NCBI GenBank assembly: GCA_965219955.1
Contig: OZ244799.1
Location: 672,001-736,000, forward strand
Length of the DNA: 64,000 bases
From: a bacterium
GTDB lineage: Bacteria > UBA8248
Reading direction: 5' to 3'
Below the pieces are notes generated by a model that did no database searches, had not been told where the DNA came from, and saw nothing but the letters and a program-made list of their open reading frames with translations. How positions within the stretch are numbered: the stretch's first letter is position 1; each line of letters begins with the position of its first letter. Made by a program: the position numbers and the translations under genes. Below are positions 21,281 through 62,582 of the stretch, one piece after another.

Positions 21281-21461
21281 CGCCCTCTCATCCCCCGGCA
21301 GTCGTATCCTCTCAAAGCCTGAAACGCTCTCCGGCCTTTCTGTCCGGTGAAATCTCTCCACTTCGTTATACCCATGTCGCCCAAACGGCATCCTTCGGGA
21401 AGTGTTGAAAAACCCCCTGAAAGGGAAACCCCATAAAGGCACCCCCCCTACCCCCCTTGTC

Positions 21462-21740
21462 GGGGCTGTTGAAAAAGTCTTCACATCTCCCTCATCCTGA
21501 GTAGCGGCCCCTCGACTCCGCTCGGGACAGGCTCCGCCCCCACCTTCCTCATCCTGAGTAGCCGCCGAAGGCGGCGTATCGAAGGTCAAACGCGATTGAT
21601 GAATGAGTGTTTGCTCTCGCCCGGCGCGAGACGTTCGACTCCCCCCGCCCTTCGATACACCGCCTTCGGCGGCTACTCAGGGTGAGGAAAGAGGTGTTGG
21701 CGGTTTGCGGGGGTCGCAGACGGGCTTTTTCAACGGTCTC
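21462..21740. mobile_element. Nested 279-bp MITE-like container with perfect 5-bp TSD
   Basis: GGGGCTGTTGAAAAAG...CTTTTTCAACGGTCTC flanked by TTGTC (21457-21461) and TTGTC (21741-21745); carries an inverted CCTCATCCTGAGTAG...GTATCGAAGG doublet (21547-21585 / 21649-21687). Confidence 0.75.
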
Positions 21741-21798
21741 TTGTCAGGGGGCAAGAAATACCCCTCGCTTTGCTTGGGATTGACCTTCGCCTCCGCTC

Positions 21799-22013
21799 GT
21801 CATTCCGGCGAAAGCCGGAATCCATTTTCGCCTTTATCTTTGGCCTTTCGCCCGGACCTCCTCTCTCCCAACCGGGGAAGATACGGGCGCCGCCATATAT
21901 ATCCGCCTCATCCGTTCCGGATTTGGGCGCGCCGCTCTCTCCCGCGAGTCGGAGTCAAATGCGAAAACGAAAGCAAAAATCATAAAATGGATTCCGGCTT
22001 TCGCCGGAATGAC
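21799..22013. repeat. GTCATTCCGGCGAAAGCCGGAATCCA inverted-doublet element
   Basis: 26-bp perfect inverted termini; related copies at 36049-36261, 60676-60888 and 62363-62513. Confidence 0.85.
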
Positions 22014-22070
22014 GGCGGGAGGGTTTGCGGTTTTCGTAGGGGTCGGACATATATGTCCTATATGGACGCC

Positions 22071-22330
22071 CACGAGAATGCAAGCGGTTTTTGGGGAGGG
22101 TTCGGCGCAAAGCGGTTCGGCTCAGTCGTATATCCGGCCTCTTCGTTGCGGCGCTTTACTCTGGCCGCGGGCCCGTATGGAGATAGGTGGACCGGGTCCA
22201 AATCGACCTGGTGAGCTCGGTGGCTCTGGACACGCATCTGGTTTTCCCGGTCCCGTCTCGATGACCGTTTGCCCTTACCCTTCCTCCGGCCTGCTCACAT
22301 TCCTCCCGGCTCTATCCGTGCGCCCGCCGC
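22071..22330 (-). ncRNA. Putative bridge/seek RNA in the non-coding region downstream of the transposase
   Basis: ~260-nt 3' non-coding region typical of the IS1111 group; stem GGACCGGG/CCCGGTCC (22189-22196 / 22246-22253) encloses an internal loop with target-like segments. Confidence 0.7.
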
Positions 22331-23356
22331 TCAGGCGAGGGGCGCCGGCTCCCTGTAGACATCCTTGTTCCGCATCAGCGCCCACGCGATGCGCGCCATC
22401 CGGTTCGCCAGCGCCACCGCCACCACCTTCCTCGGCTTGCGCGCCAGCATCCGCGCCAGCCACGGACACGGCGGCTTCCGGCGACGCCCCGCCCAGCGTA
22501 TCTCCGACATCGCGCCCGATATCAACAGACGCCTCACGTCGCGCTGGCCCATCTTCGACATGCCCCCCAGACGGGGCTTGCCCCCCGTGGAGTGCTGCCG
22601 GGGAACCAGACCCAGCCAGGCCGAGAAGTCACGGCCCCGACGGAAGTTCTCCACCGGCGGCGCGAACGCCCGGATCGCCGACGCCGTAATCGGACCAACA
22701 CCCGGGATGCTCATCAGACGCCGCGCCTCCTCGTCCGCGTATGCGCTCGCCCGGAGCCGTCCGGTCAACTCCCGGACCTTCGCATCGAGGCCGCCAATCT
22801 GGGCGAGCAGAATCCCGCCCAACTCGCGGACCTCCTCGGGCAGGCCCGATTCCGCTCCCCGAACCGCCGCCGCCAGCCGTGTGAGGCCCACGGGCCCTTG
22901 CCGCTCGACGACCCCGAACTCCGCCAGGTGGCTGCGCAGCGCGTTGCGCGCCTGCGTGCGCTGACCCACCAGCAAATCCCGCGTGCGGTACTCCATCCCA
23001 CACCCCTGCTGCGCTTCGCTCTTCACCGCCACGAAGCGCATCGTCGCCCGGGTGGCCGCCTCGCAAATGGCCTCCGCATCCGCCGCGTCGTTCTTGTGGC
23101 GCTTCACGTAGGGCTTCACGTAGACCGGCGGCATGAGCCGAACCTCATGGCCGAGCTTGCCGACCTCGCGCCCCCAGTAGTGCGCGCTCGCGCACGCCTC
23201 CATCGCCACCACGCATCGAGGCTGCGACGACAGAAACTCCAGCACCTTCGCCCGCGTCAGCTTCTTGCGGAACGCGACCCGCCCGTCCGCCCACGCGCCG
23301 TGGAGTTGAAAACTGTGTTTCGCCAAGTCGACCCCGATGATGTAGACTCCTCCCAT
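22331..23356 (-). CDS. IS110 family DEDD transposase/recombinase (341 aa, apparently intact)
   Basis: GVDLAK, AMEACA, KNDAADAEAI, IPGVGPITA, WLGLVPRQHSTGG; RBS GGAAGGAG. Confidence 0.96.
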   Translation of the reverse strand: MGGVYIIGVDLAKHSFQLHGAWADGRVAFRKKLTRAKVLEFLSSQPRCVVAMEACASAHYWGREVGKLGHEVRLMPPVYVKPYVKRHKNDAADAEAICEAATRATMRFVAVKSEAQQGCGMEYRTRDLLVGQRTQARNALRSHLAEFGVVERQGPVGLTRLAAAVRGAESGLPEEVRELGGILLAQIGGLDAKVRELTGRLRASAYADEEARRLMSIPGVGPITASAIRAFAPPVENFRRGRDFSAWLGLVPRQHSTGGKPRLGGMSKMGQRDVRRLLISGAMSEIRWAGRRRKPPCPWLARMLARKPRKVVAVALANRMARIAWALMRNKDVYREPAPLA

Positions 23357-23475
23357 GGTCGTCTCCTTCCGGGCGGTGTGTGACGTCGTCTCGCCACATT
23401 CTAATCCGCCGGAAGGAGGCGTCCACCCCATCGACTGTGTGTTCTCCCGTTTTCCGTGTTCTCGTCCGAGCGATT

Positions 23476-23501
23476 GGGCGGACACGCAGGTCCGCCCCTA
23501 C
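23476..23501 (-). repeat. GTAG-type REP (partner of the IS-interrupted REP at 22036)
   Basis: Reverse complement is GTAGGGGCGGACCTGCGTGTCCGCCC. Confidence 0.75.
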
Positions 23502-23608
23502 ATATCGAACCCGATGGAGCAGGGCTTTTTCAACAACCCCCTTTGCGCTAGGCTTGCGCTTCGACTCTATGCTATAAATGCTTGCTCCGCTCGGGAGGGT
23601 TTCGCGAC

Positions 23609-33104: not shown

Positions 33105-33181
<77 letters not shown>

Positions 33182-45398: not shown

Positions 45399-45399
45399 C

Positions 45400-49116: not shown

Positions 49117-49299
49117 CAGATGATTTCCTCCACGAATCTGGGTCGAACCAGTGGTTTTGGGGAGTATATCACGAGTGGGAGCCAAGTCCCTCCGCCCCGG
49201 CGTTTCAAGCGCCCAAAACAGGTTGCAGGGTGATTTTAGGGCCGGAATGTGCCATTGTTCCACCTTCTGGGTTCAATTTTTTCTCATCTGGAGACGCTC

Positions 49300-49797: not shown

Positions 49798-49890
49798 GCC
49801 TCAAGGGGGTGACCCTCCATTAAGTTCGGTTATTGGGGATTCTTGAAAAACGTCGGGTTCCGTTCAAACTAGATCGGAAGATCGGTCTTG

Positions 49891-50199
49891 TCACATTCTG
49901 GGTTCGGATCTTCTCCTGGCCCTTCTTTCGATTTGCTGTTTTTCAATCGAGTCATGGACCTTGACGAGCAATTCTCTGATGTTGAGCAACACGGCGAGTG
50001 TGCCGAACACGATTACGGCAACGATCCAGCCGAACACGAGGCCGATGGCAACGCCAAACAAGCCGCCGTAATCCGAAATCTGTTCTTTGCCGAAATGGAA
50101 GCCAACTACACCGGAAACGGAAATGACGATGATCGACAAAATTGCGTTGAGTGCACCGAGGGATCTGGCAAGAAATTCATTCACCTTCCGCCCTTTCAT
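49891..50199 (-). CDS. Small two-TM hypothetical membrane protein
   Basis: Two hydrophobic helices and a charged tail; lies in a lower-GC patch. Confidence 0.55.
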   Translation of the reverse strand: MKGRKVNEFLARSLGALNAILSIIVISVSGVVGFHFGKEQISDYGGLFGVAIGLVFGWIVAVIVFGTLAVLLNIRELLVKVHDSIEKQQIERRARRRSEPRM

Positions 50200-50304
50200 T
50201 CAATGACGAATTCTCTTGTGATTTTGATGGGGGGTCGTATATCAAATATTATGCTTAGTCAAGGGAATGATTCCCCACAAAACTAACCTATGGAGAGATG
50301 CGTT

Positions 50305-51291
50305 ATGTTTCGTGCTCTGGTTTTGGAGGAAGCGGACGGGAAGGTCAGTTCATCGGTTCAGGAACTCGACGAGGCGAGCCTGCCGGACGGCGACGTGACG
50401 GTCGCGATCGATTATTCGACGCTCAACTACAAGGACGGGATGATTCTGCGCGGCATCGGGCGGCTGGTGCGCAATTATCCTCACGTACCGGGCATTGATT
50501 TTGCGGGCACGGTGGAGGAGAGCGCGCACGCAGGTTACAGCCCTGGAGACAAGGTGATCCTCACCGGCTGGCGGGTCGGCGAGGCGCACTGGGGGGGATA
50601 TGCCCAGAAAGCGCGCGTCAAGGGAGACTGGCTGGTCCGCCTGCCGGAAAATATGTCCACGAGGCAGGCGATGGCGCTCGGCACGGCCGGCTTCACGGCC
50701 ATGCTCTCCGTTCAGGCGCTGGAAGACCACGGCATCGGCGTAGAAGACGGAGAAGTGCTCGTCACGGGCGCCGCGGGCGGGGTGGGTTCCGTCGCCGTGG
50801 CCGTTCTCGCGAACCTGGGCTATTCCGTCACCGCGTCGACGGGCAGAGAGGAGACCCACGCTTATCTCGAATCACTCGGCGCCTCGACCATTATCGCCCG
50901 GAGTGAACTCGCCGAACCCACGAAACGCCCGCTCGAGAGCGAACGCTGGGCAGGTTGCGTCGATTCGGTGGGCGGCACGACACTCGGACGCCTGCTGACG
51001 CAGATGAAGCACCGAAGCTCCGTGGCGGCGGTGGGACTGGCGGGCGGGAGCGCCCTCGAGACGACGGTGATTCCCTTTCTCCTGCGGGGCGTGAACCTGC
51101 TGGGCATCGATTCCGTCATGTGCCCCTTCGAGCCTCGTCAAAAGGCGTGGACGCGGCTTGCGGAGCAGATGCCGATGGACAAGCTCGAATCCATGAGCAC
51201 CGAAGCGTCGCTATCCGACCTGGCCGGACTGAGCGGCGATATCCTGAAGGGGCAGGTGAAGGGCCGCGTGGTCGTGGACGTGAACGCCTAG
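50305..51291 (+). CDS. acuI: Acryloyl-CoA reductase / YhdH-AcuI family MDR oxidoreductase
   Basis: YSTLNYKD, PGIDFAG, GTAGFTAML, VTGAAGGVGS, PFLLRGVNLLGIDSV. Confidence 0.9.
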   Translation: MFRALVLEEADGKVSSSVQELDEASLPDGDVTVAIDYSTLNYKDGMILRGIGRLVRNYPHVPGIDFAGTVEESAHAGYSPGDKVILTGWRVGEAHWGGYAQKARVKGDWLVRLPENMSTRQAMALGTAGFTAMLSVQALEDHGIGVEDGEVLVTGAAGGVGSVAVAVLANLGYSVTASTGREETHAYLESLGASTIIARSELAEPTKRPLESERWAGCVDSVGGTTLGRLLTQMKHRSSVAAVGLAGGSALETTVIPFLLRGVNLLGIDSVMCPFEPRQKAWTRLAEQMPMDKLESMSTEASLSDLAGLSGDILKGQVKGRVVVDVNA

Positions 51292-51740
51292 GCGTTTCGT
51301 TTTTTCGTCAACTCACGGTCTAAGGCCGCTGCGAACTTGTGGCGGTCCGGGGTGGCCATGGGCGGCGGGCCGCCCTGGACGAGGCCGCCCGAGCGCATGT
51401 CCATCATGAAATTTCTCAAAGACAGCCGCTCGCCCACGTTTTCCTCGGTATAGACCTCGCCGCGCGGGTCGATGCCCAAAGCGCCTTTTTCGACCGCTTT
51501 CGCCGCGAAGGGAACGTCCGCGGTGATGACGAAATCGCCCGGGTTCAGGTTCTCGACGATGTACTCATCGGCCACGTCCGCTCCGCCGGGGACCTGAATC
51601 GTGGAAACGGAAGGGATGTCCGGCGTTCTCAGCTTCATGTTGGCGACCAGAACCGTCGGAATATCAAGTCGATCGGCGGTTTTGTAGAGAATCTCCTTGA
51701 TATCTTGCGGGCATGCGTCGGCATCGACCCAGATTTTCAT
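51288..51740 (-). CDS. YaiI/YqxD family protein
   Basis: MKIWVDADACP, ADEYI, VITADVP, DPRG. Confidence 0.9.
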   Translation of the reverse strand: MKIWVDADACPQDIKEILYKTADRLDIPTVLVANMKLRTPDIPSVSTIQVPGGADVADEYIVENLNPGDFVITADVPFAAKAVEKGALGIDPRGEVYTEENVGERLSLRNFMMDMRSGGLVQGGPPPMATPDRHKFAAALDRELTKKRNA

Positions 51741-51860
51741 GCGTTTTCCCTCTCATCGCCCTTAATCCCTGCGGCTCCTTTATAGTATGATGCTTTTCAT
51801 TCGAGATACCTAACACGATATTCCGGATCGGGTGATATTCGTGCAGCCGGGAGAGTGAAT

Positions 51861-52076
51861 ATGTCACAACCGCAAGCGAATCACGAGAAAACAGCGGCGC
51901 GAATCGCCGAGATGGCCGATACCGTCTTTGGCGTGCCCCGGGATGAACTCGGCCTCAAGACGGCCGATGATTGCGCGCGGATGCTCCGGATTCTCTCGGG
52001 CACACCCGTTGAGTCCACCGATGAGCCGTTCCTCCCCCCGCTCGAAAAGCCCGAGGCCGATGAGAACGCGGAATGA
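51861..52076 (+). CDS. Small protein preceding an amidase (GatC/AtzG-like candidate)
   Basis: 71 aa, GGAG RBS, ATGA overlap with the amidase, C-terminal DEP motif. Confidence 0.6.
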   Translation: MSQPQANHEKTAARIAEMADTVFGVPRDELGLKTADDCARMLRILSGTPVESTDEPFLPPLEKPEADENAE

Positions 52077-53416
52077 GTGAGCACTGGCGGCTCTCCCTGA
52101 GCGACGGCTTGCGCAGGATGGAGGAAGGCGATCTCACGGCGGTGGAGTGGGTGCGCTCTCTTTTATCCCGCATCGACGCTTGTGAGGAGCAGGTGAAAGC
52201 CTGGGTGCAGGTGGATGGAGAGGGCGCGCTGGAGGCGGCGAAGGCGGTGGATGACGCCAGAAACGCCGGGGAGGAGTTGGGGCCTCTGGCCGGAGCGCCC
52301 TATGCGGCCAAGGATATTTTCGGCGTCCGGGGCCTCAAGCTCGAAGCCGGAACGCATATCTTCAAGGGACAGACGGCCGAGGAGGACGCCGAGTGTGTGG
52401 CGCGCCTGCGGCGTGCGGGCGCGATCGCCCTCGGCAAGGCGGTGACGACGCCTTTCGCGCAGGGAGACCCCTCCATCACCCGCAACCCCTGGAACGTCGA
52501 GCGGAGCCCGGGCGGGTCGAGCAGCGGCTCCGCCGCCGCCGTGGGCGCGGGCATGGCGCCCGCCGCGTTCGGCAGCCAGACGACGGGCTCCACGCTTCGC
52601 CCCGCCGCGTACTGCGGCGTGCCGGGCCTGAAGCCCACCTATGGACGCATTCCCAGGACGGGCGTCATCGAAGTTTCGTGGAATTTCGATCATTTGGGAA
52701 TCATAGCGCGCACGGTCGAGGACATCGCCAGAATCCTCGAAGTGGCGGCAGGCCCGGACGGGATGGATCACAGCGCCGTGCAGTCCCCGCCGCCCGCCGC
52801 GAACCAGGCGCCGCAAAAGCCGGTAAAAATCGCGTATCTGAAGCATTTGCTCGCGCTCGCCAGCGGGGAAGTCGTCGAGTGGACCGAGCGGGCCGTAGCC
52901 CGGGTAAAATCAAAGGGTATCGAAGTCGAGGAGGTGGAACTGCCCCTGAGCATGGATGAGATAAACGCGGCGCATTTCGTCGCCCGGTGTGTGGATACCG
53001 CATCCTGCCATGAGGATTTGTATGCCGCGCACAAGGACGAACTCCCTCCTTACGTGCGCAGGAGCATGACGATCGGCTATATGGCGCCCGCCGTCCACTA
53101 CGTGAAGGCGCTGCGCGTGCGCGCGAATTTCGTTCGCAAAATGGACGCTCTGATGGAGCGCTACGATCTGTTCGTGCTGCCGAGTTTCGACGCGGGGCCG
53201 CCGCCGTGGGCGGAATCCACCGGGGGGCCGGCCTTCTTGCAGCCGCTCACCTTTTCGGGGCAGCCCGCGATCACCCTGCCCCTGGGGCGGGGGGACATGA
53301 ACCTCCCCCTGGGGATCCAGTTCGGCGCGATGCGCTGCGGCGAGGAGAAGCTGCTCGCGATGGCGAGGTGGTTCGAGGACGAGATGGGCTGGATGGTGGA
53401 GTTTCCCGAATTCTAG
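52073..53416 (+). CDS. Amidase-signature family enzyme
   Basis: AKDIF, GKAVTTPFA, SPGGSSSGSAAAV, SQTTGSTLRPA. Confidence 0.92.
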   Translation: MSEHWRLSLSDGLRRMEEGDLTAVEWVRSLLSRIDACEEQVKAWVQVDGEGALEAAKAVDDARNAGEELGPLAGAPYAAKDIFGVRGLKLEAGTHIFKGQTAEEDAECVARLRRAGAIALGKAVTTPFAQGDPSITRNPWNVERSPGGSSSGSAAAVGAGMAPAAFGSQTTGSTLRPAAYCGVPGLKPTYGRIPRTGVIEVSWNFDHLGIIARTVEDIARILEVAAGPDGMDHSAVQSPPPAANQAPQKPVKIAYLKHLLALASGEVVEWTERAVARVKSKGIEVEEVELPLSMDEINAAHFVARCVDTASCHEDLYAAHKDELPPYVRRSMTIGYMAPAVHYVKALRVRANFVRKMDALMERYDLFVLPSFDAGPPPWAESTGGPAFLQPLTFSGQPAITLPLGRGDMNLPLGIQFGAMRCGEEKLLAMARWFEDEMGWMVEFPEF

Positions 53417-53458
53417 GACTGCATATATATTTTAGCTCTTGACATAGAGGGGCCTGAA

Positions 53459-54604
53459 ATGAACGAGACGGGGCCGGGAACGGCGGTAGAAGAAACAACC
53501 GATGCGGTGAAGCTCAAGATCATCGACGCGGACATCCATCCGCGCATGAACGGCATGTACCAGCTTCACCCGTATCTGTCCGAGTCGTGGCGCAAGCGCA
53601 TGGGCGTGGCGCCGCTCAGTTCCGCCAAGGACCCGACCACCGCGCGGAACGTCTTCTCGATACCCAAGCGCTGGTACTACCACCCCCACGGCGCGGAGCG
53701 TCCCGACGCCCTGCCGCCGGACGGCGGGAGGCCGGGTTCGAACCTCGACATGCTGCGCTCCCACCATCTGGACAAGTACGGCGTCGACGCGGGCATCCTC
53801 ATCGCGGGCGACCTGTTCGGCATCGGGGGATTGCCGGACGCCGACATGGCGGCCGCGTTCATCGCGGCGAACAACGACTGGCTGCTCCACGAGTGGTGCG
53901 AACCCGAACCCCGGCTCAAGCTCGCGATGCACGTCGGCCCGCGCGATCCCGGGCTCGCCGCCAAGGAAATCGAGAGAATCGGCGCGCATCCCGCCGTGGT
54001 CCAGGTGCAGATTCCCCAGATGGACGTTTTGCTGGGGAACCGCCACTACTACCCCATCTACGAGGCCGCGGAAGCCATGGGTCTGCCCATCGGGATGCAC
54101 GGCGCGGGCGAGGGGGCGGGGGTGAACACGCCCATGAACCCCACGGGAATTCCCGCCTATTACATCGAGGTGCACACGGGCGCCGTGACGATTGCGCAGG
54201 CCCAGGTCATCAGCCTGGTGTGCGAGGGCGTGTTCGTGCGCTTCCCGAAGCTCAAGGTCGTCTTCCAGGAGATGGGCTACGCCTGGCTGCCGAGTATCAT
54301 GTGGCGCTTCGACCAGGAATGGCGCTCGCTGCGCGCGGAGGTGCCCTGGCTGGAGCGTCCGCCGAGTGAATACATCGTCGACCACATCCGGCTGACCACG
54401 CAGCCCATCGCGGAGCCGCCCACGAACGAGGACCACCGCCAGATTCTCAGGATGGCGAGGGCGGAGAAGACGCTGCTGTTCGCGTCCGACTATCCGCACT
54501 GGGATTTCGACAATCCCCGGCAGGTTTTCCAGGAAGTCTCGGACGACTTGAGGCGCCGCATCTACCACGAGAGCGCCGAGGAGCTCTACGGGCACAAGCT
54601 CTGA
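53459..54604 (+). CDS. Amidohydrolase_2-fold protein (candidate dinuclear oxygenase)
   Basis: IIDADIHP, PIGMHG, FQEMG, LLFASDYPHWDFD. Confidence 0.85.
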   Translation: MNETGPGTAVEETTDAVKLKIIDADIHPRMNGMYQLHPYLSESWRKRMGVAPLSSAKDPTTARNVFSIPKRWYYHPHGAERPDALPPDGGRPGSNLDMLRSHHLDKYGVDAGILIAGDLFGIGGLPDADMAAAFIAANNDWLLHEWCEPEPRLKLAMHVGPRDPGLAAKEIERIGAHPAVVQVQIPQMDVLLGNRHYYPIYEAAEAMGLPIGMHGAGEGAGVNTPMNPTGIPAYYIEVHTGAVTIAQAQVISLVCEGVFVRFPKLKVVFQEMGYAWLPSIMWRFDQEWRSLRAEVPWLERPPSEYIVDHIRLTTQPIAEPPTNEDHRQILRMARAEKTLLFASDYPHWDFDNPRQVFQEVSDDLRRRIYHESAEELYGHKL

Positions 54605-54619
54605 GGGGGAGATTGTAAT

Positions 54620-55100
54620 AGGGGAGTTGAGATAGCCCCTTGTCGGAGGACATCGTTTCTACCCCCAATGCGAGATGGTTTGCCGGGCGACGGGGAAGAG
54701 GAAGTTCACCCGCATCAATCAGGCTTTCACCTGTAGGGGCCGCATATATGCGGCCCATGACGGGGGAGAAAAAGGCCGGGTCGCATATATGCGACCCCTA
54801 CAACAGGAGCGACAATGACGCCGGAATGACGGCGGTGGTCAATTCCGACCGAGTATGGCTTTTTCAACAACTCCTCACCGGGCGCGTTCGACTCCCGCAA
54901 ACCGCCAACGCCTATTTCCTCACCCTGAGTAGCCGCCGGAGGCGGCGTATCGAAGGGCGAGGAGAATCGAACGCCTCGCGCCGGGCGAGAGGGCCATCCT
55001 TCGATATGCGGCTCCGCCGCTACTCAGGATGAGGCGGAGTGGCGGGCTGCGCAGGTCATGGAGGGGGACTGCGCCGCGGCGGGACTTTTTCAACAACCCC
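54620..55100. repeat. Composite repeat container 4 (degenerate left end, two right ends)
   Basis: GTAG REP doublet 54733-54801; GGAATGAC remnant ~54823; right ends at 54874 and 55100; CCTCACCCTGAGTAG doublet 54918-55034. Confidence 0.7.
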
Positions 55101-55150
55101 TTCAGGTGTGGGCTGCGATATAGCTGAATGGCTCGGAATGCCCGCCCGTA

Positions 55151-56248
55151 TCAAATATCGAGGCGGAATTTGTGGACTGCCTCCTCGTTCACTTCCACGC
55201 CCAGGCCCGGACCCTCGGGCACCTTGACGACCCCGCCTTCCGCCTCGAAGCCGGTGACGATGTCCTCATCGTGCCAGGCGGGGGCCTTGCCCGATTCGTT
55301 GTAGACGATGGAAGGGGTCGAGGCGAAAAGGTGCGCGCAGGCGGCGTCGTTCAGCGCGCTGTGGATCACGCTGCCGCAGATGCCCTCGATGCCGTGTATC
55401 TCGATGAGGGCGGCGGCCTTTTTCGCATGGAGCAACCCGCCCTCGCGGTTCACTTTGAGGTTCACGATGTCGGCGGCGCGCCTGCGCGCGATTTCGGCCA
55501 GGTAGTCGGGGCGGAACGATTCGTCCGCGCAGATGGGGATGCGCGTGTTCTTGTTGACGAACTCCAGGCCGTCCAGGTCGTTGCCGGGCACGGGCTGCTC
55601 GAGCATCGTGATGCCGTACTCCTCGATGCGCGCACACATCTGAACGGCGAGCTTGGGCGTCCAGCTCATGTTCGCGTCGACGACGATGTGCGCCTCATCC
55701 CCGGCCGCCTCCCGGGCGGCCGCGACGCGCGCGATGCTCGTCTTCGTATCGCGGTTCATCTTCACCTTGAACGAGGTGATGCCCAGCGCCATGGATTCCG
55801 CCGCGAGTTCGGCGGTCCTTTCGGGTGATTCGAGCGGCAGGATGTCGAAGGCGGGCATCTCGTCCCTGATTTTTCCGCCCAGCAGGTCGTAGACCGGACA
55901 GCCCAGCATGCGGCCGATGAGGTCGTGCACCGCGCAGTCGATGGCCGCCTTGGGGGAATGGTGGAAGGGGATGGCTTTTTCCATCCTGTGGACGATGCGT
56001 TCCCTGTCGAAGGGGCTGCAGTCGGCGACGGCGGGAACCAGGTATTCATCGAGTATCTGGTACGCGCTCTTGAGCGTCTCCCCGGTCGGGAACGAGCGCA
56101 GCGGCGCCCCGCCCCAGCCCGAAACGCCCTCGCAGGTGATTTTTACGACGATGTCTTCTGAATGCGTCGCGGTGCGCGTGGCGCTCTTGTAGGGATGGTT
56201 GAGCGGGATGGCGACGGGGAAGAGTTCTATTTTCTCGATTTTTCTCAT
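55151..56248 (-). CDS. Enolase superfamily enzyme (muconate cycloisomerase/dipeptide epimerase subgroup)
   Basis: FKVKM (KxK), VDAN, LEQP, ADES, NLK, PGLG; start ATG 56248. Confidence 0.9.
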   Translation of the reverse strand: MRKIEKIELFPVAIPLNHPYKSATRTATHSEDIVVKITCEGVSGWGGAPLRSFPTGETLKSAYQILDEYLVPAVADCSPFDRERIVHRMEKAIPFHHSPKAAIDCAVHDLIGRMLGCPVYDLLGGKIRDEMPAFDILPLESPERTAELAAESMALGITSFKVKMNRDTKTSIARVAAAREAAGDEAHIVVDANMSWTPKLAVQMCARIEEYGITMLEQPVPGNDLDGLEFVNKNTRIPICADESFRPDYLAEIARRRAADIVNLKVNREGGLLHAKKAAALIEIHGIEGICGSVIHSALNDAACAHLFASTPSIVYNESGKAPAWHDEDIVTGFEAEGGVVKVPEGPGLGVEVNEEAVHKFRLDI

Positions 56249-56268
56249 TCGTGCTCTCGGCTCCAAAA

Positions 56269-56427
56269 GGGTTTGTTGAAAAAGTCCGATAAAGGAGGGT
56301 TGCGGTTGTAGGGACAACCCTCCGTGGTTGTCCTTCGTCAGGACAGGCACGGAGGCCTGTCCCTACGGCAAACAATTCGATGATCGGGATTCCCTCCCTC
56401 CTCGCGGAGGGCTTTTTCAACAACCCC
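56269..56427. mobile_element. Minimal 159-bp container 5 carrying one GTAG REP doublet
   Basis: GGGTTTGTTGAAAAAG...CTTTTTCAACAACCCC; REPs at 56308-56333 and 56341-56366; lies between the Rieske and enolase genes. Confidence 0.75.
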
Positions 56428-56441
56428 GAATAGCGGGGGAA

Positions 56442-56840
56442 TCACACGTGCAGCATCACCAGGTCTTTTTCGAGCGTGACCTCATACGTCTCGATGGAGG
56501 GGTCTTCTTCCGCCTCGAGCGTGACCTCATAGGTTTTGACGCGCATCCTGTGGGGGTTGAATACGGAGCGCCCGTTCGTGATGTCGAACTCCCAGCAGTG
56601 CCAGGGACACACGAGAACCTGCTCGTCCATCACGTATTCGTAGGTATGGGGCCTGGAGGACTTCATGGTCCCCTTGACCTTGCCGAGGCAAAGCGGCGCG
56701 CCCTGGTGCGGGCAGGAGTTCCTGACAGCGTACAGGGAATTCCTGATGTTGAACACGCCGATGGAGCGGCCCTCGACCTCGACGATCTTCCGCGCACCGG
56801 GGGGCAGTTCCGATATTTTGCACACCAGGTGTTTCGCCAT
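56442..56840 (-). CDS. Rieske [2Fe-2S] ferredoxin
   Basis: CPHQGAPL and CPWHCWEFD; start ATG 56840. Confidence 0.92.
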   Translation of the reverse strand: MAKHLVCKISELPPGARKIVEVEGRSIGVFNIRNSLYAVRNSCPHQGAPLCLGKVKGTMKSSRPHTYEYVMDEQVLVCPWHCWEFDITNGRSVFNPHRMRVKTYEVTLEAEEDPSIETYEVTLEKDLVMLHV

Positions 56841-56857
56841 GCGCGATACGCCCCGTT

Positions 56858-57685
56858 CTAGTTTCCGGCCGCCGCGGCCGCCGCCTTTTCCCTCAGTATC
56901 TCTTCGAGCTTCGGCATGGCGCGCACCGACGCGTAGCGCGCGTGCTGGCCGCTTTGCGTGGAGAGGCTTCGTTTCGAGCCCTTGGGGATGTGGATGATGG
57001 AGCCGGGGCCCGACGCTTGCCGCTCGTCGTCCACCTGGGCGTCGATGACCCCCTTGATGACGTAGACGAACTGCTCGTGCGCGTTCTCGGCCGTCGAATC
57101 CTCGAATCCTTCGGGTATTTCGCCGTAGCCGAACGCGAGGCGCTCGCCCTCGATCCACACGGTGTGGCGTCCCGAGGATGCGGGCGCGTCGAAGGAGGGG
57201 AGTATCGGGTAATAGGAGTTGTTCAGGCCCTCGACGATGATTTCCGCTCTCTCGGCGTCTCTTTCGTATTCTTCCGCAGTGCCATCCTCGTATCGCTGGT
57301 TGATTTCCTCGACGGTGAGCGCCTTGTCCGGCACCACCTGGTCCCTGTCGAGCCCCACGACCGTCCAGGAGCGGTCCTTCACGTAGAGGTAGTCCATGTC
57401 GCCGTCTTCGGTGGCGCCCATTTGGTGCTGGGCGTAAGGGGGCACGTGAACGAAGGTGCCCGGCGCGACGACCCTTCTGTCCTTCCCGACGAGGGCGTTG
57501 ATTTTACCGCTGATGGGGAAAATCATGAGTTCGTTGGGGTGGTAGTGGATCTGGGAGCCCGTGCCGGCCACTTTGCTGACCTGGCAGAAATACATGAATT
57601 CCCCCTCGATGATGGCTCCCTGGCCGGAGGAGAGATGGGGCGTGACGGCTTTTTTCTCTATTTCTTCGAAACGATGGAACGGCAT
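56858..57685 (-). CDS. Bicupin protein
   Basis: HYHPNE...HVPPYAQH; second degenerate cupin AHEQFVY...HIPKG. Confidence 0.82.
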   Translation of the reverse strand: MPFHRFEEIEKKAVTPHLSSGQGAIIEGEFMYFCQVSKVAGTGSQIHYHPNELMIFPISGKINALVGKDRRVVAPGTFVHVPPYAQHQMGATEDGDMDYLYVKDRSWTVVGLDRDQVVPDKALTVEEINQRYEDGTAEEYERDAERAEIIVEGLNNSYYPILPSFDAPASSGRHTVWIEGERLAFGYGEIPEGFEDSTAENAHEQFVYVIKGVIDAQVDDERQASGPGSIIHIPKGSKRSLSTQSGQHARYASVRAMPKLEEILREKAAAAAAGN

Positions 57686-57934
57686 CCGGTAAACTCCTTT
57701 TCTGACGAAATTATCCCCGCATTGGTTTTCGGTGAATCACGGCAAGGGGTCGCCGGGAATCAAAAAATTATTGTTGTCAGGTTTGTTGAACCCAAGGCGC
57801 GAATGTTACCCTTTCCCGTCGCGTCTGACAATTTATGATCGATAAAAATAATGAGGCGTCCCCCCGGCGTTTCCCGGCGGCGGGGCGCAAGCAAGGAATT
57901 TTCACGGCACTTATCAAACATACTGGAGATTGTT

Positions 57935-58936
57935 ATGGCGGATGAAAAAGTACGGCTGGCGTCCATCGGCCTGGCCAACTGGGGAACCATGCTGGGGAAT
58001 GCCGCGAAAAGGGCGGGGAACGTGGAAATCACCCGGTGCTTCACGAGAACGGAGTCCTCGCGCGAGGAGTTCGCGGAGAAATTCGGCTGCCGCCCGGCGG
58101 CGTCTTACGATGAAGTCCTGAAGGACAGCGAGGTGGAGGGCATCCTCATCGCCACGCCCCATTCCACGCATACGGACCTGATCACGCAGGCGGCATCGGC
58201 GGGCAAGCACGTCTTCGTCGAAAAGCCGCTCACCCTGACGGTGGCGGATGCGGACAAGTGCATCGAAGCCACCGAGAGCGCGGGCGTCACGATGCTGGTG
58301 GGACACCACAGGAGGCGGCAGGGAGCGAACCGCCGGATTCGGGCGATGATAGACGAGGGCGCGCTCGGGATGGTTCACGCCCTGGAGGCGAACCTCTCGA
58401 ATCCCAACGGCCAGAACCCGAGAAGCGGCTGGCGGAACGACCCGGCGGAATGCCCGGCGGGGGGCATGACGGGGCTCGGCGTCCACATGGTGGACAATCT
58501 CCAGTACCTGGCCGGCCCGGCGAAGCGGGTGAGCGCGTTCAGCAAGCAACTCTACGCCGCGGGCAATCTGGATGACGTGACGAACATCATCCTCGAATAC
58601 GAGAGCGGCCCGCTCGGCTACATCACCACCTGCTACGTCACCTCCAAGCAGTGCACGACGTCGGCCCACGGCACCGAAGCCTCCGCGTGGAGCGAGGATG
58701 AGGGCGAGCGGCTGTATCTCCAGAAAAAAGGCGAGAACGAACGGAGCGAGCTCTCCGTGGACGGCGGCGATGCGCTCGCCGAGGAAATACAGGAATTCGG
58801 CAGGTGCATCCGCGGTGAGGCCACACCGGAGACGGACGGGAAGGCGGCGCGCGAAGTGGTGGCCGTCCTGGAGTCGATCGTCGAGAGTGCGAAGAGCGGG
58901 CGCGTGGTCGAGGTTTCGGAGATCAGGGGGCATTGA
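57935..58936 (+). CDS. Gfo/Idh/MocA family oxidoreductase
   Basis: IGLANWG, ATPHSTH, HVFVEKP, GVHMVD. Confidence 0.9.
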   Translation: MADEKVRLASIGLANWGTMLGNAAKRAGNVEITRCFTRTESSREEFAEKFGCRPAASYDEVLKDSEVEGILIATPHSTHTDLITQAASAGKHVFVEKPLTLTVADADKCIEATESAGVTMLVGHHRRRQGANRRIRAMIDEGALGMVHALEANLSNPNGQNPRSGWRNDPAECPAGGMTGLGVHMVDNLQYLAGPAKRVSAFSKQLYAAGNLDDVTNIILEYESGPLGYITTCYVTSKQCTTSAHGTEASAWSEDEGERLYLQKKGENERSELSVDGGDALAEEIQEFGRCIRGEATPETDGKAAREVVAVLESIVESAKSGRVVEVSEIRGH

Positions 58937-58938
58937 GC

Positions 58939-59967
58939 GTGAGCGAAACGAGTGCGGATTCCTGGGAAATCGGGGGTGTGGAGATAGCCGCAGGTTCCTA
59001 TGAATACGTGAAAATCCCGGTGGCGCGGATGCTCACCGGCTCGGAGACGGGCCTGCCCCTCCATTGCGTGAGAGGGGAGAAACCCGGCCTCACCCTCTCC
59101 GTTCTGGCGTGCGTCCACGGGGATGAGCCGCAGCCGATTCGCGCGTTCCAGAACGTGATCGCGCAAATCGACCGGAAGCAACTGAGCGGCGCTCTTCTTC
59201 TCGTTCCGGTGGCGAACCCGTTCGCCTTTGCGAATTTTTCGCGCCAATCGCCCGATCAGCACGAGCAGACGAACCTCTGGGGCGCGTTTCCGGGGTCCGC
59301 CAAGGGGACGCTCACGCAGCGCTACGCGCACAAGATTCGTGAAACCCTGATCGAGCGCGCGGATTATCTCGTGGAGTTTCACTCCGGCGGGGCGTCGGGG
59401 AGAATCCAGAGGCGCGTCGACATGGACCCGGACGCCGAAGGCGCCGTCGGCGAAAAATCGCGCGAGATGGCGATTGCTTTCGCGAGCGGGGGCGCCGCGC
59501 TGGTGCATGGCGTGCCTTTCAGCACGTCGAGCGCTTCGGGCCATGCGCTCACGCAGAAGATACCGGCCATCAGCGTGGAGATTGGCGGCGCCTACCTGCC
59601 CGAATGCGAGGAGAACCTTTACCGGGAGAACCTGGAGGAGGGGTTCTTGAACCTGCTCGTCCACCTCGGGATGCTCCCGGGGGAGGAGAAGAGACTGAAG
59701 ATCACCTATTTCGGTTTCGCCAACCGCGCCGAGGCCAACCCGTCGAGCGGCGGATACCTCGTCTCGCGGAAAACGCACTTCGCGGACCTGGGCGCCAGGG
59801 TGAGCGAAGGGGAGCTTCTGGGTGAGATGCTGGATCCTTTCAGCCTGGAGGTGGTGGAGGAACTGCGAAGCCCCGCCGACGGCGTGCTTTTCTTCAGCAG
59901 GTGCAGCGGGCCGTTCGAAGTGGGCAACAAGGGGTTCGCCGTCGCCACCGAATACCGGGAAATATAA
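58939..59967 (+). CDS. Succinylglutamate desuccinylase/aspartoacylase (M14) family protein
   Basis: VHGDE, VANPFAF, EFHSGG, VEIGG, C-terminal biotinyl-like domain. Confidence 0.85.
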   Translation: MSETSADSWEIGGVEIAAGSYEYVKIPVARMLTGSETGLPLHCVRGEKPGLTLSVLACVHGDEPQPIRAFQNVIAQIDRKQLSGALLLVPVANPFAFANFSRQSPDQHEQTNLWGAFPGSAKGTLTQRYAHKIRETLIERADYLVEFHSGGASGRIQRRVDMDPDAEGAVGEKSREMAIAFASGGAALVHGVPFSTSSASGHALTQKIPAISVEIGGAYLPECEENLYRENLEEGFLNLLVHLGMLPGEEKRLKITYFGFANRAEANPSSGGYLVSRKTHFADLGARVSEGELLGEMLDPFSLEVVEELRSPADGVLFFSRCSGPFEVGNKGFAVATEYREI

Positions 59968-60035
59968 TCCGCCGCGCTCAGGCGCGAAATCTATCCATGG
60001 GTCTTTGAACAACCGAATGGAGGAAACGCAAGACA

Positions 60036-60482
60036 ATGCCTTTTTACGATCCCGAGACGATGGAGCAGAAACTGGCGGGGGCGAGCTACAGCACCTCCGA
60101 GGGCGTGTGGGTCGACGGCGACCGCGTCATATTCGGCGTCATCAACAAGCCGGCGGGCACGGGCAGCAGGCCGCACCGCCACCCCAACGAGCAGTTCATC
60201 TTCGTTCAGCAGGGCAGCCTGCAGGCGATGATCGACGGCGAGCGGAAAACGGTCGGCAAAGGGGGAATCATCCACATCCCGGCCAATTCGCTCCACAGCA
60301 TGGTGGCCACCGATGATGAGGACGTCATCTTCATCGTGGCGAAGGATACGACCTGGCAGATCGAGGGGGTCGCCGAGGATGATTCCTCCTACGGCGCGTA
60401 CATCGGCGAGGGCGCGGACGGGAGCGTGGCCGCGCGGTTTCGCGAGATCGCCGAGCAAGGCCCCGAGTCAAGCGGCTGTTGA
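60036..60482 (+). CDS. Cupin domain protein
   Basis: HRHPNEQ...HIPANSLH; similar to the N-terminal domain of the bicupin. Confidence 0.88.
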   Translation: MPFYDPETMEQKLAGASYSTSEGVWVDGDRVIFGVINKPAGTGSRPHRHPNEQFIFVQQGSLQAMIDGERKTVGKGGIIHIPANSLHSMVATDDEDVIFIVAKDTTWQIEGVAEDDSSYGAYIGEGADGSVAARFREIAEQGPESSGC

Positions 60483-60950
60483 AAAAAAGTCCTTCTTGCT
60501 CGCGTTTGATCTCCCACAGCATCAGCCTGCGGGGCAGGGGCAGGCCCCCGTGCCTGTTCGAGGCCCGCGCCGGTCTACCGATCTGGTAGGGGCCGTTCGC
60601 GAACGGCCCTTGCCGGAGAAACGGGCGCTTCACGAAGCGCCCCTACGACACCCTTTTGGGGAGATCACAACACCCGTCATTCCGGCGAAAGCCGGAATCC
60701 ATTTTGACTTTTCACCGGGCGGGGCGGCCACGACCTTGTTGTCGCGCGGCGTTTGGATGCGGAATCCAGAAAATTCGCCTTTCGTTTTTGTGTTCGATTC
60801 CGATCCTCCCCTCCTCGGAGTAAAGACGTCCGAACGAGGAAGCGAAAAGGCAAAGGCGAAAATGGATTCCGGCTTTCGCCGGAATGACGGCCAATACCCG
60901 AACCCGGGCGGAGGCGTCACTTCCTCCTCAAGGGCTTTTTCAACAGCTCC
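60472..60950. mobile_element. Composite repeat container 6
   Basis: GCGGCTGTTGAAAAA...CTTTTTCAACAGCTCC; flanks GTCAA/CTCAA (4/5); GTAG REP doublet 60586-60646; GTCATTCC element 60676-60888. Confidence 0.75.
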
Positions 60951-61174
60951 CTCAAGGGGGGAGTGATTGTTTATCTCGCGACTGATGGGATGGTCCTCAA
61001 GAGAGTGAAATTTAGTGCGCTCCTTCTGTGGGGTTTTTCAGAAGCCCTGATAAAGCGGAGATTTACTTGAGTCCCGTAAAACCGGCCGCGTGCGTTTCCT
61101 CGCAAGGGTAGAGAATAAGAAAAGCGCGAAGAGGGGGTAATCTCGTGCGCAATTCCATGATCCCGAAAACGCGC

Positions 61175-61193
61175 AAATCTTGGCGCAAGATTT
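61175..61193. promoter_or_regulatory. Candidate operator palindrome next to a possible -35 box
   Basis: AAATCTTG-GCG-CAAGATTT, abutting TTGACT-17 nt-AAGAAT, upstream of the permease. Confidence 0.35.
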
Positions 61194-61346
61194 TGACTTG
61201 GAATTCTATTTTTGCAAGAATGGCCGCAAATCGGACTTAAGCCGCAATGAGCCATCAAGAGCTGACGGGAAAATTCCATGGCTTAGGCTTTGGCCGCATC
61301 GCATACGTGATATTTTTGAAATTCGCATGATTTGGGAGGCTGTTTG

Positions 61347-62216
61347 ATGGCCACGGCAACGGATGAAGTCAGAAGGGACGAGGTAAAACTGCCTGACGAG
61401 TATACCAAGCAGGAAAGATTCTGGATGTGGATCAAGGACAACATCCCGAGTTTTATTGCGGTGCTCGTGATATGGGAGTGCATCGCCTGGTACGTGAGCG
61501 AGCCCGCGCTGTTCCCCCGTGTATTTCCCATCGTCCACCGATTTTACGAGGTCACTTTCCTGAGGTCCGGTGAGACCCTGTGCGTCTTGTGCGTGCACTC
61601 CTACCACACCGCCTGGCGGATCATGGTGGGCATGATCATCGCCGGCTTCGTGGGGATAGCCATCGGCATCGCGATGGGCCGCATCGGCTGGTTCGAGAAG
61701 TTCATGATCCCCATCCTGAGCATGCTCCTGCCCATCCCGGCGCTGGCCTGGAGCCCGATTCTCGTCCTGTGGTTCGGCCTCGGCAACACGACCATGATCT
61801 TCATCACCGCGTTCGCCGCGGCGCTGCCGGCCATCTCCTCGACGTGGACGGGGGTGAAGACCATTAATCCCATCTGGATACGGGCGGCGCAGTCGATGAA
61901 CGCCGAGGGGATGACCCTGTTCTGGAAGGTCATCTTCCCCGGTTCGCTGCCGTTCATCCTCTCGGGCATCCGCATCGGCCTGGCGCGCGCATGGCGCGCC
62001 GGCATCGCGGGCGAGATGGTGGCCGCGAGCGACTGGGGCCTGGGCTACGCCATCTTCGACAGCCGCGAGGACCTCGACACCGCCTTCATGCTGGTGGGAA
62101 TCGCGGCCATCGCCCTGGTCGGCTTCGTGATGGAGAAGTTCATCTTCGAGAAGTTCGAAAAGGTGACCGTCGTCAAGTGGGGCATGATGGAAGAGGTCGG
62201 CGGACAGCGCCAGTAA
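61347..62216 (+). CDS. ABC permease, SsuC/TauC/NrtB family
   Basis: PIPALAWSP, WFGLG, IRAAQSM, PGSLPFI, EMVAASDWGLG. Confidence 0.9.
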   Translation: MATATDEVRRDEVKLPDEYTKQERFWMWIKDNIPSFIAVLVIWECIAWYVSEPALFPRVFPIVHRFYEVTFLRSGETLCVLCVHSYHTAWRIMVGMIIAGFVGIAIGIAMGRIGWFEKFMIPILSMLLPIPALAWSPILVLWFGLGNTTMIFITAFAAALPAISSTWTGVKTINPIWIRAAQSMNAEGMTLFWKVIFPGSLPFILSGIRIGLARAWRAGIAGEMVAASDWGLGYAIFDSREDLDTAFMLVGIAAIALVGFVMEKFIFEKFEKVTVVKWGMMEEVGGQRQ

Positions 62217-62240
62217 CGAATATCACCGACAGGCCATATC

Positions 62241-62279
62241 AAAGGCCGGCTCCCCTTGGGGGGGCCGGCCTTTTTGTTT
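62241..62279 (+). terminator. Rho-independent terminator
   Basis: AAAGGCCGGCTCCCC-TTG-GGGGGGCCGGCCTTT followed by TTGTTT. Confidence 0.75.
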
Positions 62280-62293
62280 GCCGGTGATTCTCG

Positions 62294-62582
62294 CGGGCCG
62301 TTTGAAAAACTCCTCCGGGAGGAAGTGACGCCGACACCTCGGCCCGGTTTGCGGTTTTGGCCGTCATTCCGGCGAAAGCCGGAATCCATTGAATGATCTT
62401 TTGCCTTTTGTTTTATGTTCGATTCCGCTCCTCCCTGCCCGGGAGTGAATACGTCTGAGCGAGGAGGCGAAAAAACGAGAGCGAAAATGGATTCCGGCTT
62501 TCGCCGGAATGACGGCGGTGTGGACGGCCTCGACCCATGCGAGAGGGATTGCAGGGGTGGTTTACGGTGACGTTGAAAAACC
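62294..62582. repeat. Degenerate composite repeat container 7
   Basis: GCCGTTTGAAAAAC end with a subterminal segment matching the reverse complement of 60889-60945; GTCATTCC element 62363-62513; second end CGTTGAAAAACC at 62571. Confidence 0.65.

Follow-up and report, generated by a model that had tools for sequence, protein, structure and literature searches.

The ends GGGGYTGTTGAAAAAG that bound seven intergenic repeat loci in the 64-kb stretch of bacterial DNA analysed here (the window) are very probably terminal inverted repeats (TIRs) of the IS1182 family, and the elements they delimit non-autonomous derivatives (MITEs) that became nested by repeated insertion. A first-pass annotation had claimed that seven loci share their termini, and all seven were recovered where it had placed them. 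Scanning the window for GGGGNTGTTGAAAAA at ≤2 mismatches returned 17 matches against 0.42 expected (100 shuffles: standard deviation 0.57, largest 2), the end count being 12-17 per 64 kb. The motif was confined to seven of the 22 intergenic gaps and extended across loci to the consensus GGGGYTGTTGAAAAAGYCC. Three of the 17 matches (at 11681, 49836 and 62566) appear to be chance or badly degenerate copies. Seven of the ten intergenic gaps of ≥380 bp are MITE nests, which account for most of the long intergenic DNA of the window.

Within the gaps, '+' copies of the motif mark the left edge and '-' copies the right, with inverted, inward-facing pairs at loci 1, 3, 5 and 6. Since this arrangement persists at locus 1 (livF> ... 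>trpF) and locus 5 (between two '-' genes), neither of which has convergent flanking genes, end pairing is independent of gene direction. This argues against the motif being a host functional site at gene boundaries (a terminator, protein-binding site or REP-like unit) rather than a transposon end. At loci 3 and 6 the ends do adjoin stop codons, and two ends fall in terminator-like sites composed of a hairpin and a T-run (56392-56411 and 62324-62310); however, such sites show no clear enrichment in 44000-63000 (25 vs 17.2±3.4), and an Rfam search of the window at the gathering score matched only a tRNA (33105-33178) and none of the repeat loci. Given in addition the transposase genes bracketed by the same ends in several genomes, as well as the 5-bp duplications and the empty site described below, a host-site reading is extremely improbable and already contradicted.

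The same ends are present in metagenome-assembled genomes (MAGs) labelled Nitrospinota, Bacteroidales, Planctomycetota and Hydrogenedentota. In a comparison sample of 117 loci among the matches listed, plus the window, consecutive motif matches ≤700 bp apart were arranged '+-' in 64 cases, '++' in 14, '--' in 20 and '-+' in 8, inward-facing pairs thus outnumbering outward-facing ones 64 to 8. When clusters near locus ends (62) were left out, 35 had the architecture '+-' and none was a lone '-+'. Paired copies were 91-479 bp long. The first-pass annotation had proposed pairing the motifs and tabulating target duplications, and these proved far more frequent than chance: perfect 5-bp duplications flanked 14 of 63 pairs against a permutation mean of 0.49 (2000 permutations, maximum 5), and matches of ≥4/5 bases flanked 24 of 63 against 2.4 (maximum 7), while a clear duplication was absent at 39 of 63. 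The signal appeared only at k=5 at the GGGG boundary. Many of these loci come from short-read MAGs, in which repeats may be misassembled; the same structures also occur in the chromosome-level records OY843592.1 and OZ242260.1. By their interiors, the paired elements fell into clusters of 20, 9, 6, 5, 4 and 2 members and 18 singletons, including subfamilies with the same ends, differing palindromic cores and target duplications of their own. One such unit, designated A+C (A denoting the ends), aligns end to end in five genomes, and among several species-level genomes the palindromic cores C, E and B show 85-95% identity.

A DDE transposase acting in trans had been postulated for these elements, with IS1182 among the guesses for its family, and indeed the ends bracket IS1182-family transposases in other genomes. 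At comparison locus L056 (10001-11529), a 485-aa ORF between the same ends matches NF033551 (IS1182 family) with 356.6 bits against a cutoff of 270, as well as PF05598, PF13751 and PF01609; the transposase of L004 reaches 308.5 bits against the same cutoff. Homologues adjoin the motif in L050 (75.8% amino-acid identity), L004, L083 and L086, with weaker ones in L039, L101, L109/110 and L082, and matching ends flank the transposase-bearing copies L056, L050, L004, L083, L086, L118 and L119. Full-length ISs with the same TIRs are thus found in other genomes (e.g. L056, L050 and L004), one of which, the MAG JAPPHK01, is rich in these MITEs and holds the full copy L050. Bradyrhizobium sp. 62B p1 and Sinorhizobium medicae pSymB carry copies annotated as 'IS1182 family transposase' (about 63% amino-acid identity), with the ends GGGGTCGTTGAAAAAG and GGGGCTGTTGAAGAAG and perfect 5-bp duplications (CGCGT and TACGT). 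The rhizobial and MAG ISs accordingly share with the window elements the roughly 16-19-bp ends (GGGG.YGTTGAA.AAG) and the 5-bp duplication, and differ from them in carrying an NF033551 DDE transposase; the ends alone are held in common. Beyond about 20 bp of the ends, MITE interiors have nothing in common with the IS, so that a derivation by internal deletion is unsupported. Neither the 64-kb window nor the listed loci of the two closest MAGs, JAJDYR01 and JAJEJD01, which cover a small part of those genomes, contained an IS1182 transposase homologue, leaving present-day mobility in this genome unsupported. Tn3-type ends likewise begin with GGGG, are about 38 bp long and generate a 5-bp target duplication, and TIMEs (Tn3-derived MITEs) resemble the window elements in both the GGGG start and the duplication; they differ in their Tn3-family partner and about 38-bp ends, compared with an IS1182-family partner and about 19 bp here. 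We rejected identity with TIMEs, as the ORFs between the ends are of the IS1182 family and carry DDE_Tnp_1 and DDE_Tnp_1_6 domains.

The most informative case of nesting is locus 1 (21398-23540; no strand is assigned to elements unless given), an outer IS1182-type MITE brought to 2143 bp by nested insertions. The motif scan places its ends at 21398-21412 (left, degenerate: GGAAGTGTTGAAAAA) and 23526-23540 (right). Inside, a 278-bp MITE of the A+C subfamily (21462-21739, '+' strand) sits in the loop of an E hairpin, with TTGTC on either side (21457-21461 and 21740-21744). Copies in four other genomes can be aligned with it over its full length, and positions 21547-21734 are 91.6% identical to L027. 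Further along lie a B element (21799-22013) with inverted GTCATTCCGGCGAAAGCCGGAATCCA arms at both bounds and, on the '-' strand, a gene for an IS110-family RNA-guided transposase (22331-23485; NF033542, E 7.1e-90; PF01548 and PF02371), which is outside the MITE family; the element it belongs to largely explains why the locus exceeds 2 kb. In the close relative represented by L114, which matches the window at 95.6% identity across the start of trpF, the livF-trpF gap holds an element with the same flanks and only about 213 bp. There, the E hairpin is intact (CCCCCCCTTGTCAGGGGGGCAAG) where the window has the 278-bp element between its two TTGTC copies; with this inner hairpin uninterrupted, the L114 site is an empty site. 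It is the one case of presence/absence polymorphism (window 21462-21739 vs L114) in answer to the proposed search for empty sites in relatives; the outer element is common to both genomes and not polymorphic between them. Compared at the sequence level, the two loci show growth in place from about 213 bp to 2.1 kb. Nesting runs from the outer element through the E doublet and the inner element to the C doublet, so that at least three layers ('up to three' had been claimed) are real in this locus. Inverted pairs, 5-bp duplications, non-coding interiors, many copies and one empty site together uphold the designation of these elements as non-autonomous MITEs.

The flanks of the elements point to a bias in where they insert. 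C is present at 45-52% at positions -11, -10, -8, -7 and -6 and at 35% at -9; TTGAG and TTGTC account for 21 and 10 of 275 flanking 5-mers; and an A end interrupts the E hairpin in 7 of 52 contexts. Self-complementarity around the duplication is 5.08 against 4.35±0.26 in permuted flanks, a value reached by 0.55% of permutations. The preference for hairpin loops is thus statistically modest, not strict. TTGAG is far more frequent among the flanks than its expected partner CTCAA (21 vs 4), and CATAC/GTATG flanks are inverted rather than direct; simple insertion is insufficient for either. Inverted flanks of this kind (TTGAG/CTCAA in L040, CATAC/GTATG in L064) are what inversion or exchange would give, and the right half of the locus 1 E doublet has been replaced in the window relative to L114. 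Both would fit a mosaic produced chiefly by homologous recombination or gene conversion among dispersed repeats instead of by nested transposition. As exact 5-bp duplications and an uninterrupted empty site speak for insertion instead, we consider this explanation very unlikely as the main one; recombination probably adds to insertion and does not replace it.

The remaining loci vary in completeness. Locus 2 (35689-36304) has '+' ends at 35689, 35799 and 35855, the latter two each preceded by a C-run and a TTGTC half-hairpin, and a degenerate '-' end at 36287-36304 similar to the right end of the IS in L056 (GGGGTTATTCAACAACCCC); its cargo is a C doublet (35908-36002) and a B element (36049-36261). 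Locus 3 (44857-45398) fills the entire spacer between convergent stop codons (TAG 44849-51, TTA 45400-02) with an E doublet (44941-45060), which shows 94-95% identity to its counterparts in loci of JAJDYR01 and JAJEJD01, and a C doublet (45138-45274) that includes an F unit at 45212. Locus 4 consists of two adjacent elements, 54620-54874 and about 54875-55100. The first is a complete MITE whose left end has degenerated; it carries a GTAG palindrome doublet and a B-arm remnant and is 80% identical over 260 bp to a paired element in L026 (9767-10020); the second is of A+C type, lacks a left end, has its right end at 55086-55100 and agrees in its interior with the A+C consensus GCAAACCGCCAACGCC..CCTCACCCTGAGTAG. 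The simplest copy, locus 5 (56269-56427, 159 bp), comprises a GTAG-type palindrome doublet between two ends and belongs to a nine-member subfamily from several genomes (88-96% identical to L009, L017, L048, L051, L099 and L010); inspection of its flanks revealed no target duplication. Locus 6 (60472-60950; ends 60472-60486 and 60936-60950) is flanked by GTCAA/CTCAA (4/5) and contains a B element (60676-60888) 94% identical to 36048-36264 of locus 2; its left end provides the TGA stop (60480-60482) of a cupin gene (60036-60482). Locus 7 (62294-62582) consists of a degenerate end, a linker corresponding, in reverse complement, to the right linker of locus 6, a short B element (62363-62513) and a second end at 62566, both ends being degenerate and in the same sense and thus forming no inverted pair.

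The cargo is indeed a mosaic of several repeat families, as described by the first-pass annotation. Family B (GTCATTCCGGCGAAAGCCGGAATCCA) is represented in the window by eight arms forming four elements and family C (CCTCATCCTGAGTAG) by 11 matches, alongside E (a C-run/TTGTCA/G-run doublet), the F unit and GTAG palindromes. In the window scan, which covered families B, C, E and F, all motif matches lay within the seven loci. The short word GTATCGAAGG occurs once more at 42471, within a gene. Alignment recovered all four recurring subterminal linkers, with identical columns numbering 84/101 (35700-35798 and 44871-44968), 59/70 (45331-45398 and 55033-55100), 43/52 (36254-36304 and 54823-54874) and 45/63 (60889-60945 and the reverse complement of 62300-62362). 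The reported flank repeats TTGTC/TTGTC, CTTCG/CTTTG and GTCAA/CTCAA likewise read as described, giving the window one perfect duplication and two at 4/5.

Recurrent junctions between linkers and modules raise the possibility that each 0.5-2 kb container is, as a whole, a single mobile unit that actively captures and shuffles repeat families. Movement as a unit does occur for small composites whose palindromic core is foreign, any interior could in principle be mobilised by a transposase for which the two ends suffice, and TIMEs are reported in passages of PMC4133298 and PMC13367494 to form mosaic non-autonomous transposons. Against this, none of the large window loci recurred as a unit among the listed loci and the window, 60472-60950 being a singleton; locus 1 demonstrably grew in place; locus 4 breaks down into two elements; and at loci 2 and 7 the ends do not form proper inverted pairs. 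Moreover, no A end lay within 1 kb of 9 of 26 E matches (JAJEJD01 loci) and 8 of 13 B matches (OY843592 loci), which makes B and E independent families and more than cargo. Mobile containers are therefore unlikely. 'Interchangeable modules' remains fair wording, because same-ended subfamilies with different cores and their own duplications exist. The 'capture and shuffle' of the first-pass annotation is supported only in part; the direct evidence is of insertion into pre-existing repeats, biased to hairpin loops, and not of active capture.

Nested insertion of IS1182-type MITEs could proceed as follows. A DDE transposase supplied in trans would recognise the roughly 19-bp ends and insert the DNA between them through a 5-bp staggered cut, the latter being shown by the duplications. 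Preferred sites would be a 5-mer between a C-run and a G-run, that is, the hairpin loops of other palindromic families, such that elements would land in one another and in other repeats. Because the genome is compact, we propose that whichever MITE enters a gap first then offers the main landing pad that is tolerated there; large containers would then be nests grown in place from a founder MITE, and small composites (ends plus an E, C or GTAG doublet core) would be re-amplified as units, yielding subfamilies in several genomes. In our view the elements are selfish DNA and serve no required host function.

The first-pass annotation knew of no named element with this architecture, yet precedents exist. 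IS1182-derived MITEs of 160 bp (14 copies) and 169 bp (7 copies), with ISMac2 as partner, are tabulated for Methanosarcina acetivorans (PMC3852290). Like the window elements, these are short, multi-copy and non-autonomous with an IS1182-family partner; they differ in their archaeal host and in inverted and direct repeats of apparently 26 and 4, against about 19 and 5 here, and the table passage mentions neither nesting nor modular cores. IS1397, ISKpn1, ISPpu9/10 and ISPa11 insert into REP/BIME hairpins (PMC1525189), as the present elements do into palindromic extragenic repeats, with the difference that the bias here is towards C-run/5-mer/G-run hairpin loops and statistical rather than strict. 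The GTAG, C and E doublet cores are inverted palindromic pairs like the REP doublets described in parts of PMC3116915 and PMC2817692, and the GTAG cores may themselves be REPIN-like. REPINs and BIMEs are of Y1/RAYT type and lack a target duplication, whereas the bounding ends here are DDE-type with 5-bp duplications. A RAYT/Y1 transposase was absent from 48 window ORFs (18 compared with NCBIfam and 30 with Pfam, E ≤1e-8), and on these two grounds we rejected REPIN/BIME identity for the A-ended elements.

The elements are thus real and fairly ordinary bacterial mobile DNA, IS1182-derived MITEs being already known. They provide an annotation rule for these genomes (GGGGYTGTTGAAAAAG ends plus a 5-bp duplication), alter gene ends, as with the stop codon at 60480-60482, and form nests that probably give rise to MAG assembly breaks and to false small ORFs. 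Hairpin-loop targeting by the IS1182 family would be modestly new: the REP-targeting survey PMC1525189 names the IS3, IS110, IS4, IS256 and IS5 families, and IS1182 occurs nowhere in it. A broader, quite unlikely reading is that IS1182-type ends are a general carrier of REP/REPIN-like modules, picked up at hairpin loops and re-amplified as composites, spreading repeats between distant bacteria. If true, compact genomes would owe the movement of part of their 'REP' landscape to a DDE transposase and not to RAYTs.

The motif GGGGNTGTTGAAAAA matches the window 17 times at up to two mismatches, versus 0.42 matches expected, and a longer end consensus, GGGGYTGTTGAAAAAGYCC, was read from all seven intergenic loci (loci 1-7: 21398-23540, 35689-36304, 44857-45398, 54620-55100, 56269-56427, 60472-60950 and 62294-62582), the element ends being given as GGGGYTGTTGAAAAAG. 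In a motif scan, window matches to the repeat families B, C, E and F fell exclusively within these loci; GTAG palindromes were found by eye in reading the loci, as the scan covered B, C, E and F. The short word GTATCGAAGG has one further occurrence, at 42471 within a gene. The repeat loci and cargo families listed in the first-pass annotation are therefore real, and its four linker similarities hold (84/101, 59/70, 43/52 and 45/63 identical columns). Its reading of each locus as one element needed amendment: locus 4 comprises two adjacent elements, the ends of locus 7 are present albeit degenerate and both of the same sense, and locus 1 is large chiefly through an internal IS110-family element. 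By rough gene calls, the motif occupies seven of the 22 window gaps of at least 80 bp and seven of the ten of at least 380 bp, with '+' copies at the left edge of intergenic gaps and '-' copies at the right. This rule is kept at loci 1 (livF and trpF, both '+') and 5 (two '-' genes), where the neighbours are not convergent, indicating that end pairing is a property of the element itself and not of gene direction. Elsewhere, the window carries three tandem paralogous Peripla_BP_6 periplasmic-binding-protein genes (13736-17748; DNA identity 66-87%) upstream of branched-chain amino-acid ABC permease and ATPase genes, and a 1.4 kb stretch free of repeat motifs (40141-41565) whose sole ORF (40731-41153, minus strand) had no Pfam match at E ≤1e-8.

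Genome contigs were scanned with GGGGNTGTTGAAAAAGNCC and 10-kb flanks taken, yielding at least 117 loci (1.2 Mb). Across these and the window, consecutive motif hits at most 700 bp apart (up to two mismatches) faced inward (+-) 64 times versus outward (-+) eight times, with 14 ++ and 20 -- arrangements. Counted by cluster (62 clusters close to locus ends being excluded), '+-' occurred 35 times and '-+' alone never, alongside 29 and 28 solo ends and several occurrences, each or together, of the nested patterns '++--', '+++--' and '+--'. Identical 5-mers just outside the GGGG/CCCC ends flanked 14 of 63 pairs, and 24 of 63 agreed at four or more of the five positions; permuting the right flanks 2000 times gave means of 0.49 (maximum 5) and 2.4 (maximum 7), respectively, placing the 5-bp duplications suspected earlier above chance. 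The signal was unique to 5 bp at the end boundary, other lengths and registers failing.

The same ends bracket full transposase genes. In the contig locus L056, they enclose a 485-aa ORF that scored 356.6 bits (cutoff 270) against the IS1182-family profile NF033551 and contains DUF772, DDE_Tnp_1 and DDE_Tnp_1_6 domains. A homologue with 75.8% amino-acid identity adjoins the motif in L050, from a Nitrospinota-labelled MAG in which the small elements, too, are abundant; among the matches listed, further motif-adjacent homologues lie in L004, L083 and L086, and weaker ones in L039, L101, L109/110 and L082. A tblastn search of a plasmid collection returned annotated 'IS1182 family transposase' genes at ~63% identity in Bradyrhizobium sp. 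62B p1 and Sinorhizobium medicae pSymB, with ends GGGGTCGTTGAAAAAG / CTTCTTCAACGACCCC and GGGGCTGTTGAAGAAG / GTTCTTCAACAGCCCC and the perfect 5-bp duplications CGCGT and TACGT. Because these annotated rhizobial copies have matching ends and perfect duplications, and the L056 transposase is bracketed likewise, the initial guess at IS1182 was correct. Paired elements of 130-195 bp with the same ends also occur in L008, L014, L043, L063, L088, L103 and L115, from Bacteroidales-labelled MAGs of 37-49% G+C, six of these elements making up a single subfamily; thus, IS1182-type ends are conserved over very different genome compositions. In the rhizobial plasmid loci L118 (330-345 / 1840-1860) and L119 (335-350 / 1830-1850), the IS1182 copies break a homologous flank, after ...GGCAGCGCTGT.., at the identical position, and the CDS immediately upstream of the L118 copy is annotated 'transposase'; the shared site is possibly a hot spot for insertion within another IS.

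TIMEs have ends that start GGGG and generate a 5-bp duplication. As the window family shares both features, a Tn3-derived TIME identity was raised, but membership fails on the IS1182-family ORFs between the ends, the partner transposase not being of the Tn3 family. TIMEs have been reported to build mosaic elements (PMC4133298). The cores of the window elements resemble REPINs, but a scan of 48 window ORFs detected no RAYT, and Rfam at gathering score returned only a tRNA in the window. A terminator role of the ends was rejected, as only two lie at terminator-like sites (region count 25 versus 17.2±3.4).

The 64 pair interiors from at least 117 loci and the window clustered into groups of 20, 9, 6, 5, 4 and 2 members plus 18 singletons. 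The largest group, with an E-doublet core, includes L114; the 9-member group includes window 56269-56427, with a GTAG-type doublet; and every member of the 6-member group comes from a Bacteroidales-labelled MAG. Members of the 4-member group, laid out as ends, GCAAACCGCCAACGCC linker and C doublet, align end to end with the element at window 21462-21739, copies differing by extra small insertions within hairpin loops. They show duplications of their own, perfect in L065 (TTTTC/TTTTC) and the window (TTGTC/TTGTC) and matching at 4/5 positions in L078 and L064. The interchangeable modules of the first reading thus correspond to subfamilies with shared ends and distinct palindromic cores, and such small composites move as units. 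Within the at least 117 loci, B, C and E mostly have an A end (the terminal motif) within 1 kb; exceptions among the matches listed are nine of 26 E hits in loci of JAJEJD01, a MAG close to the window, and eight of 13 B hits in those of the chromosome-level record OY843592, which marks B, C and E as families in their own right.

Locus 1 offers an empty site. L114 (JAJDYR01, MAG jk18x34bins.43) is orthologous to the window's livF-trpF gap (95.6% over 320 bp) and holds an element with the same outer ends and flanks, only ~213 bp long, around a single intact E doublet (...CCCCCCCTTGTCAGGGGGGCAAG...). In the window, a 278-bp element with its own ends (21462-21739) splits this E hairpin after TTGTC, which recurs on its far side. 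Since the L114 hairpin is uninterrupted, locus 1 records an insertion and in-place growth of a nest, bearing out both the predicted empty site and the nesting. In a second such comparison, between L041 and L046 (85% identity across 9 kb), the repeat-bearing gap did not align, and a tblastn search of 41 window proteins against the listed loci gave paralogue-level matches only, with no orthologues. Locus 1 also contains, within 22040-23520, an IS110-family RNA-guided transposase (gene 22331-23485, minus strand; NF033542, E 7e-90) with a short non-coding leader, lying between GTAG-type palindromes (22037-22060 and 23470-23494). This arrangement agrees with the known tendency of IS110 elements to insert into REPs (PMC1525189; PMC12288879). 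No second copy was found among the DNA of the matches listed.

Among the matches listed, C is enriched in the outside flanks from -12 to -6 (~50% at most positions), and TTGAG (21), TTGTC (10), CATAC (8) and GACAA (6) are over-represented in 275 distinct flanks. Of 52 contexts with a C-run plus TTGTC, most continue into a G-run, leaving the hairpin intact, and seven into an A end; ACTCCCCCC plus TTGAG is also found without A. At the 24 clear-duplication sites, 10-nt flank complementarity was 5.08 versus 4.35±0.26 when permuted, a value reached by 0.55% of permutations. From these sequence patterns we read a moderate target preference for hairpin loops, under which insertions would fall preferentially in other palindromic repeats and in earlier MITEs. 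TTGAG outnumbers CTCAA in flanks 21:4, and CATAC/GTATG flanks are inverted. A separate hairpin family (..TCACTCCCCCC TTGAG GGGG..) abuts ends in 21 of the 275 flanks, an orientation bias given that the expected CTCAA partner junction occurs only four times (examples: L083 301, L004 13457, L009 10004 and window 60951-60965); it also stands alone, followed by GGGGAGTCGA....

IS1182-derived MITEs have already been published for Methanosarcina (PMC3852290), and REP-hairpin insertion for the IS3, IS110, IS4, IS256 and IS5 families, in a survey that does not name IS1182 (PMC1525189); a review table enters IS1182 transposition chemistry as 'Unknown' (PMC6199540). In literature searches on IS1182 with MITEs and on bacterial nested MITEs, the end sequence was undescribed, a thin basis for calling the family unnamed; the match for nested MITEs concerns fungi.

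The window system is a real, heavily nested family of IS1182-family MITEs that divides into several core subfamilies; its IS1182-family DDE ends, 5-bp duplication, one empty site, nesting and composite subfamilies are established. The proposed container that captures and shuffles modules is supported only in part, since the large loci resemble nests that grew in place. Mobilisation in trans in the window's genome is a step we infer, given that no IS1182 transposase was found in the window or in the part of its closest MAGs, JAJDYR01 and JAJEJD01, covered by the listed matches. Hairpin-loop targeting would lead to nesting, and selection would restrict the copies that survive to neutral positions. 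Two cases agree with such selection. At locus 3, the nest takes up the whole spacer between convergent stops (TAG 44849-51, TTA 45400-02), which before insertion may have been only ~2 bp, and the left end of locus 6 (60472-60486) replaces the last codons of a cupin-domain gene (60036-60482) and supplies its TGA stop. As the locus 6 flanks GTCAA/CTCAA form a 4/5 duplication, the cupin frame would, without the insertion, run a few codons into GGGGGGAGTGA, now at 60956-60966.
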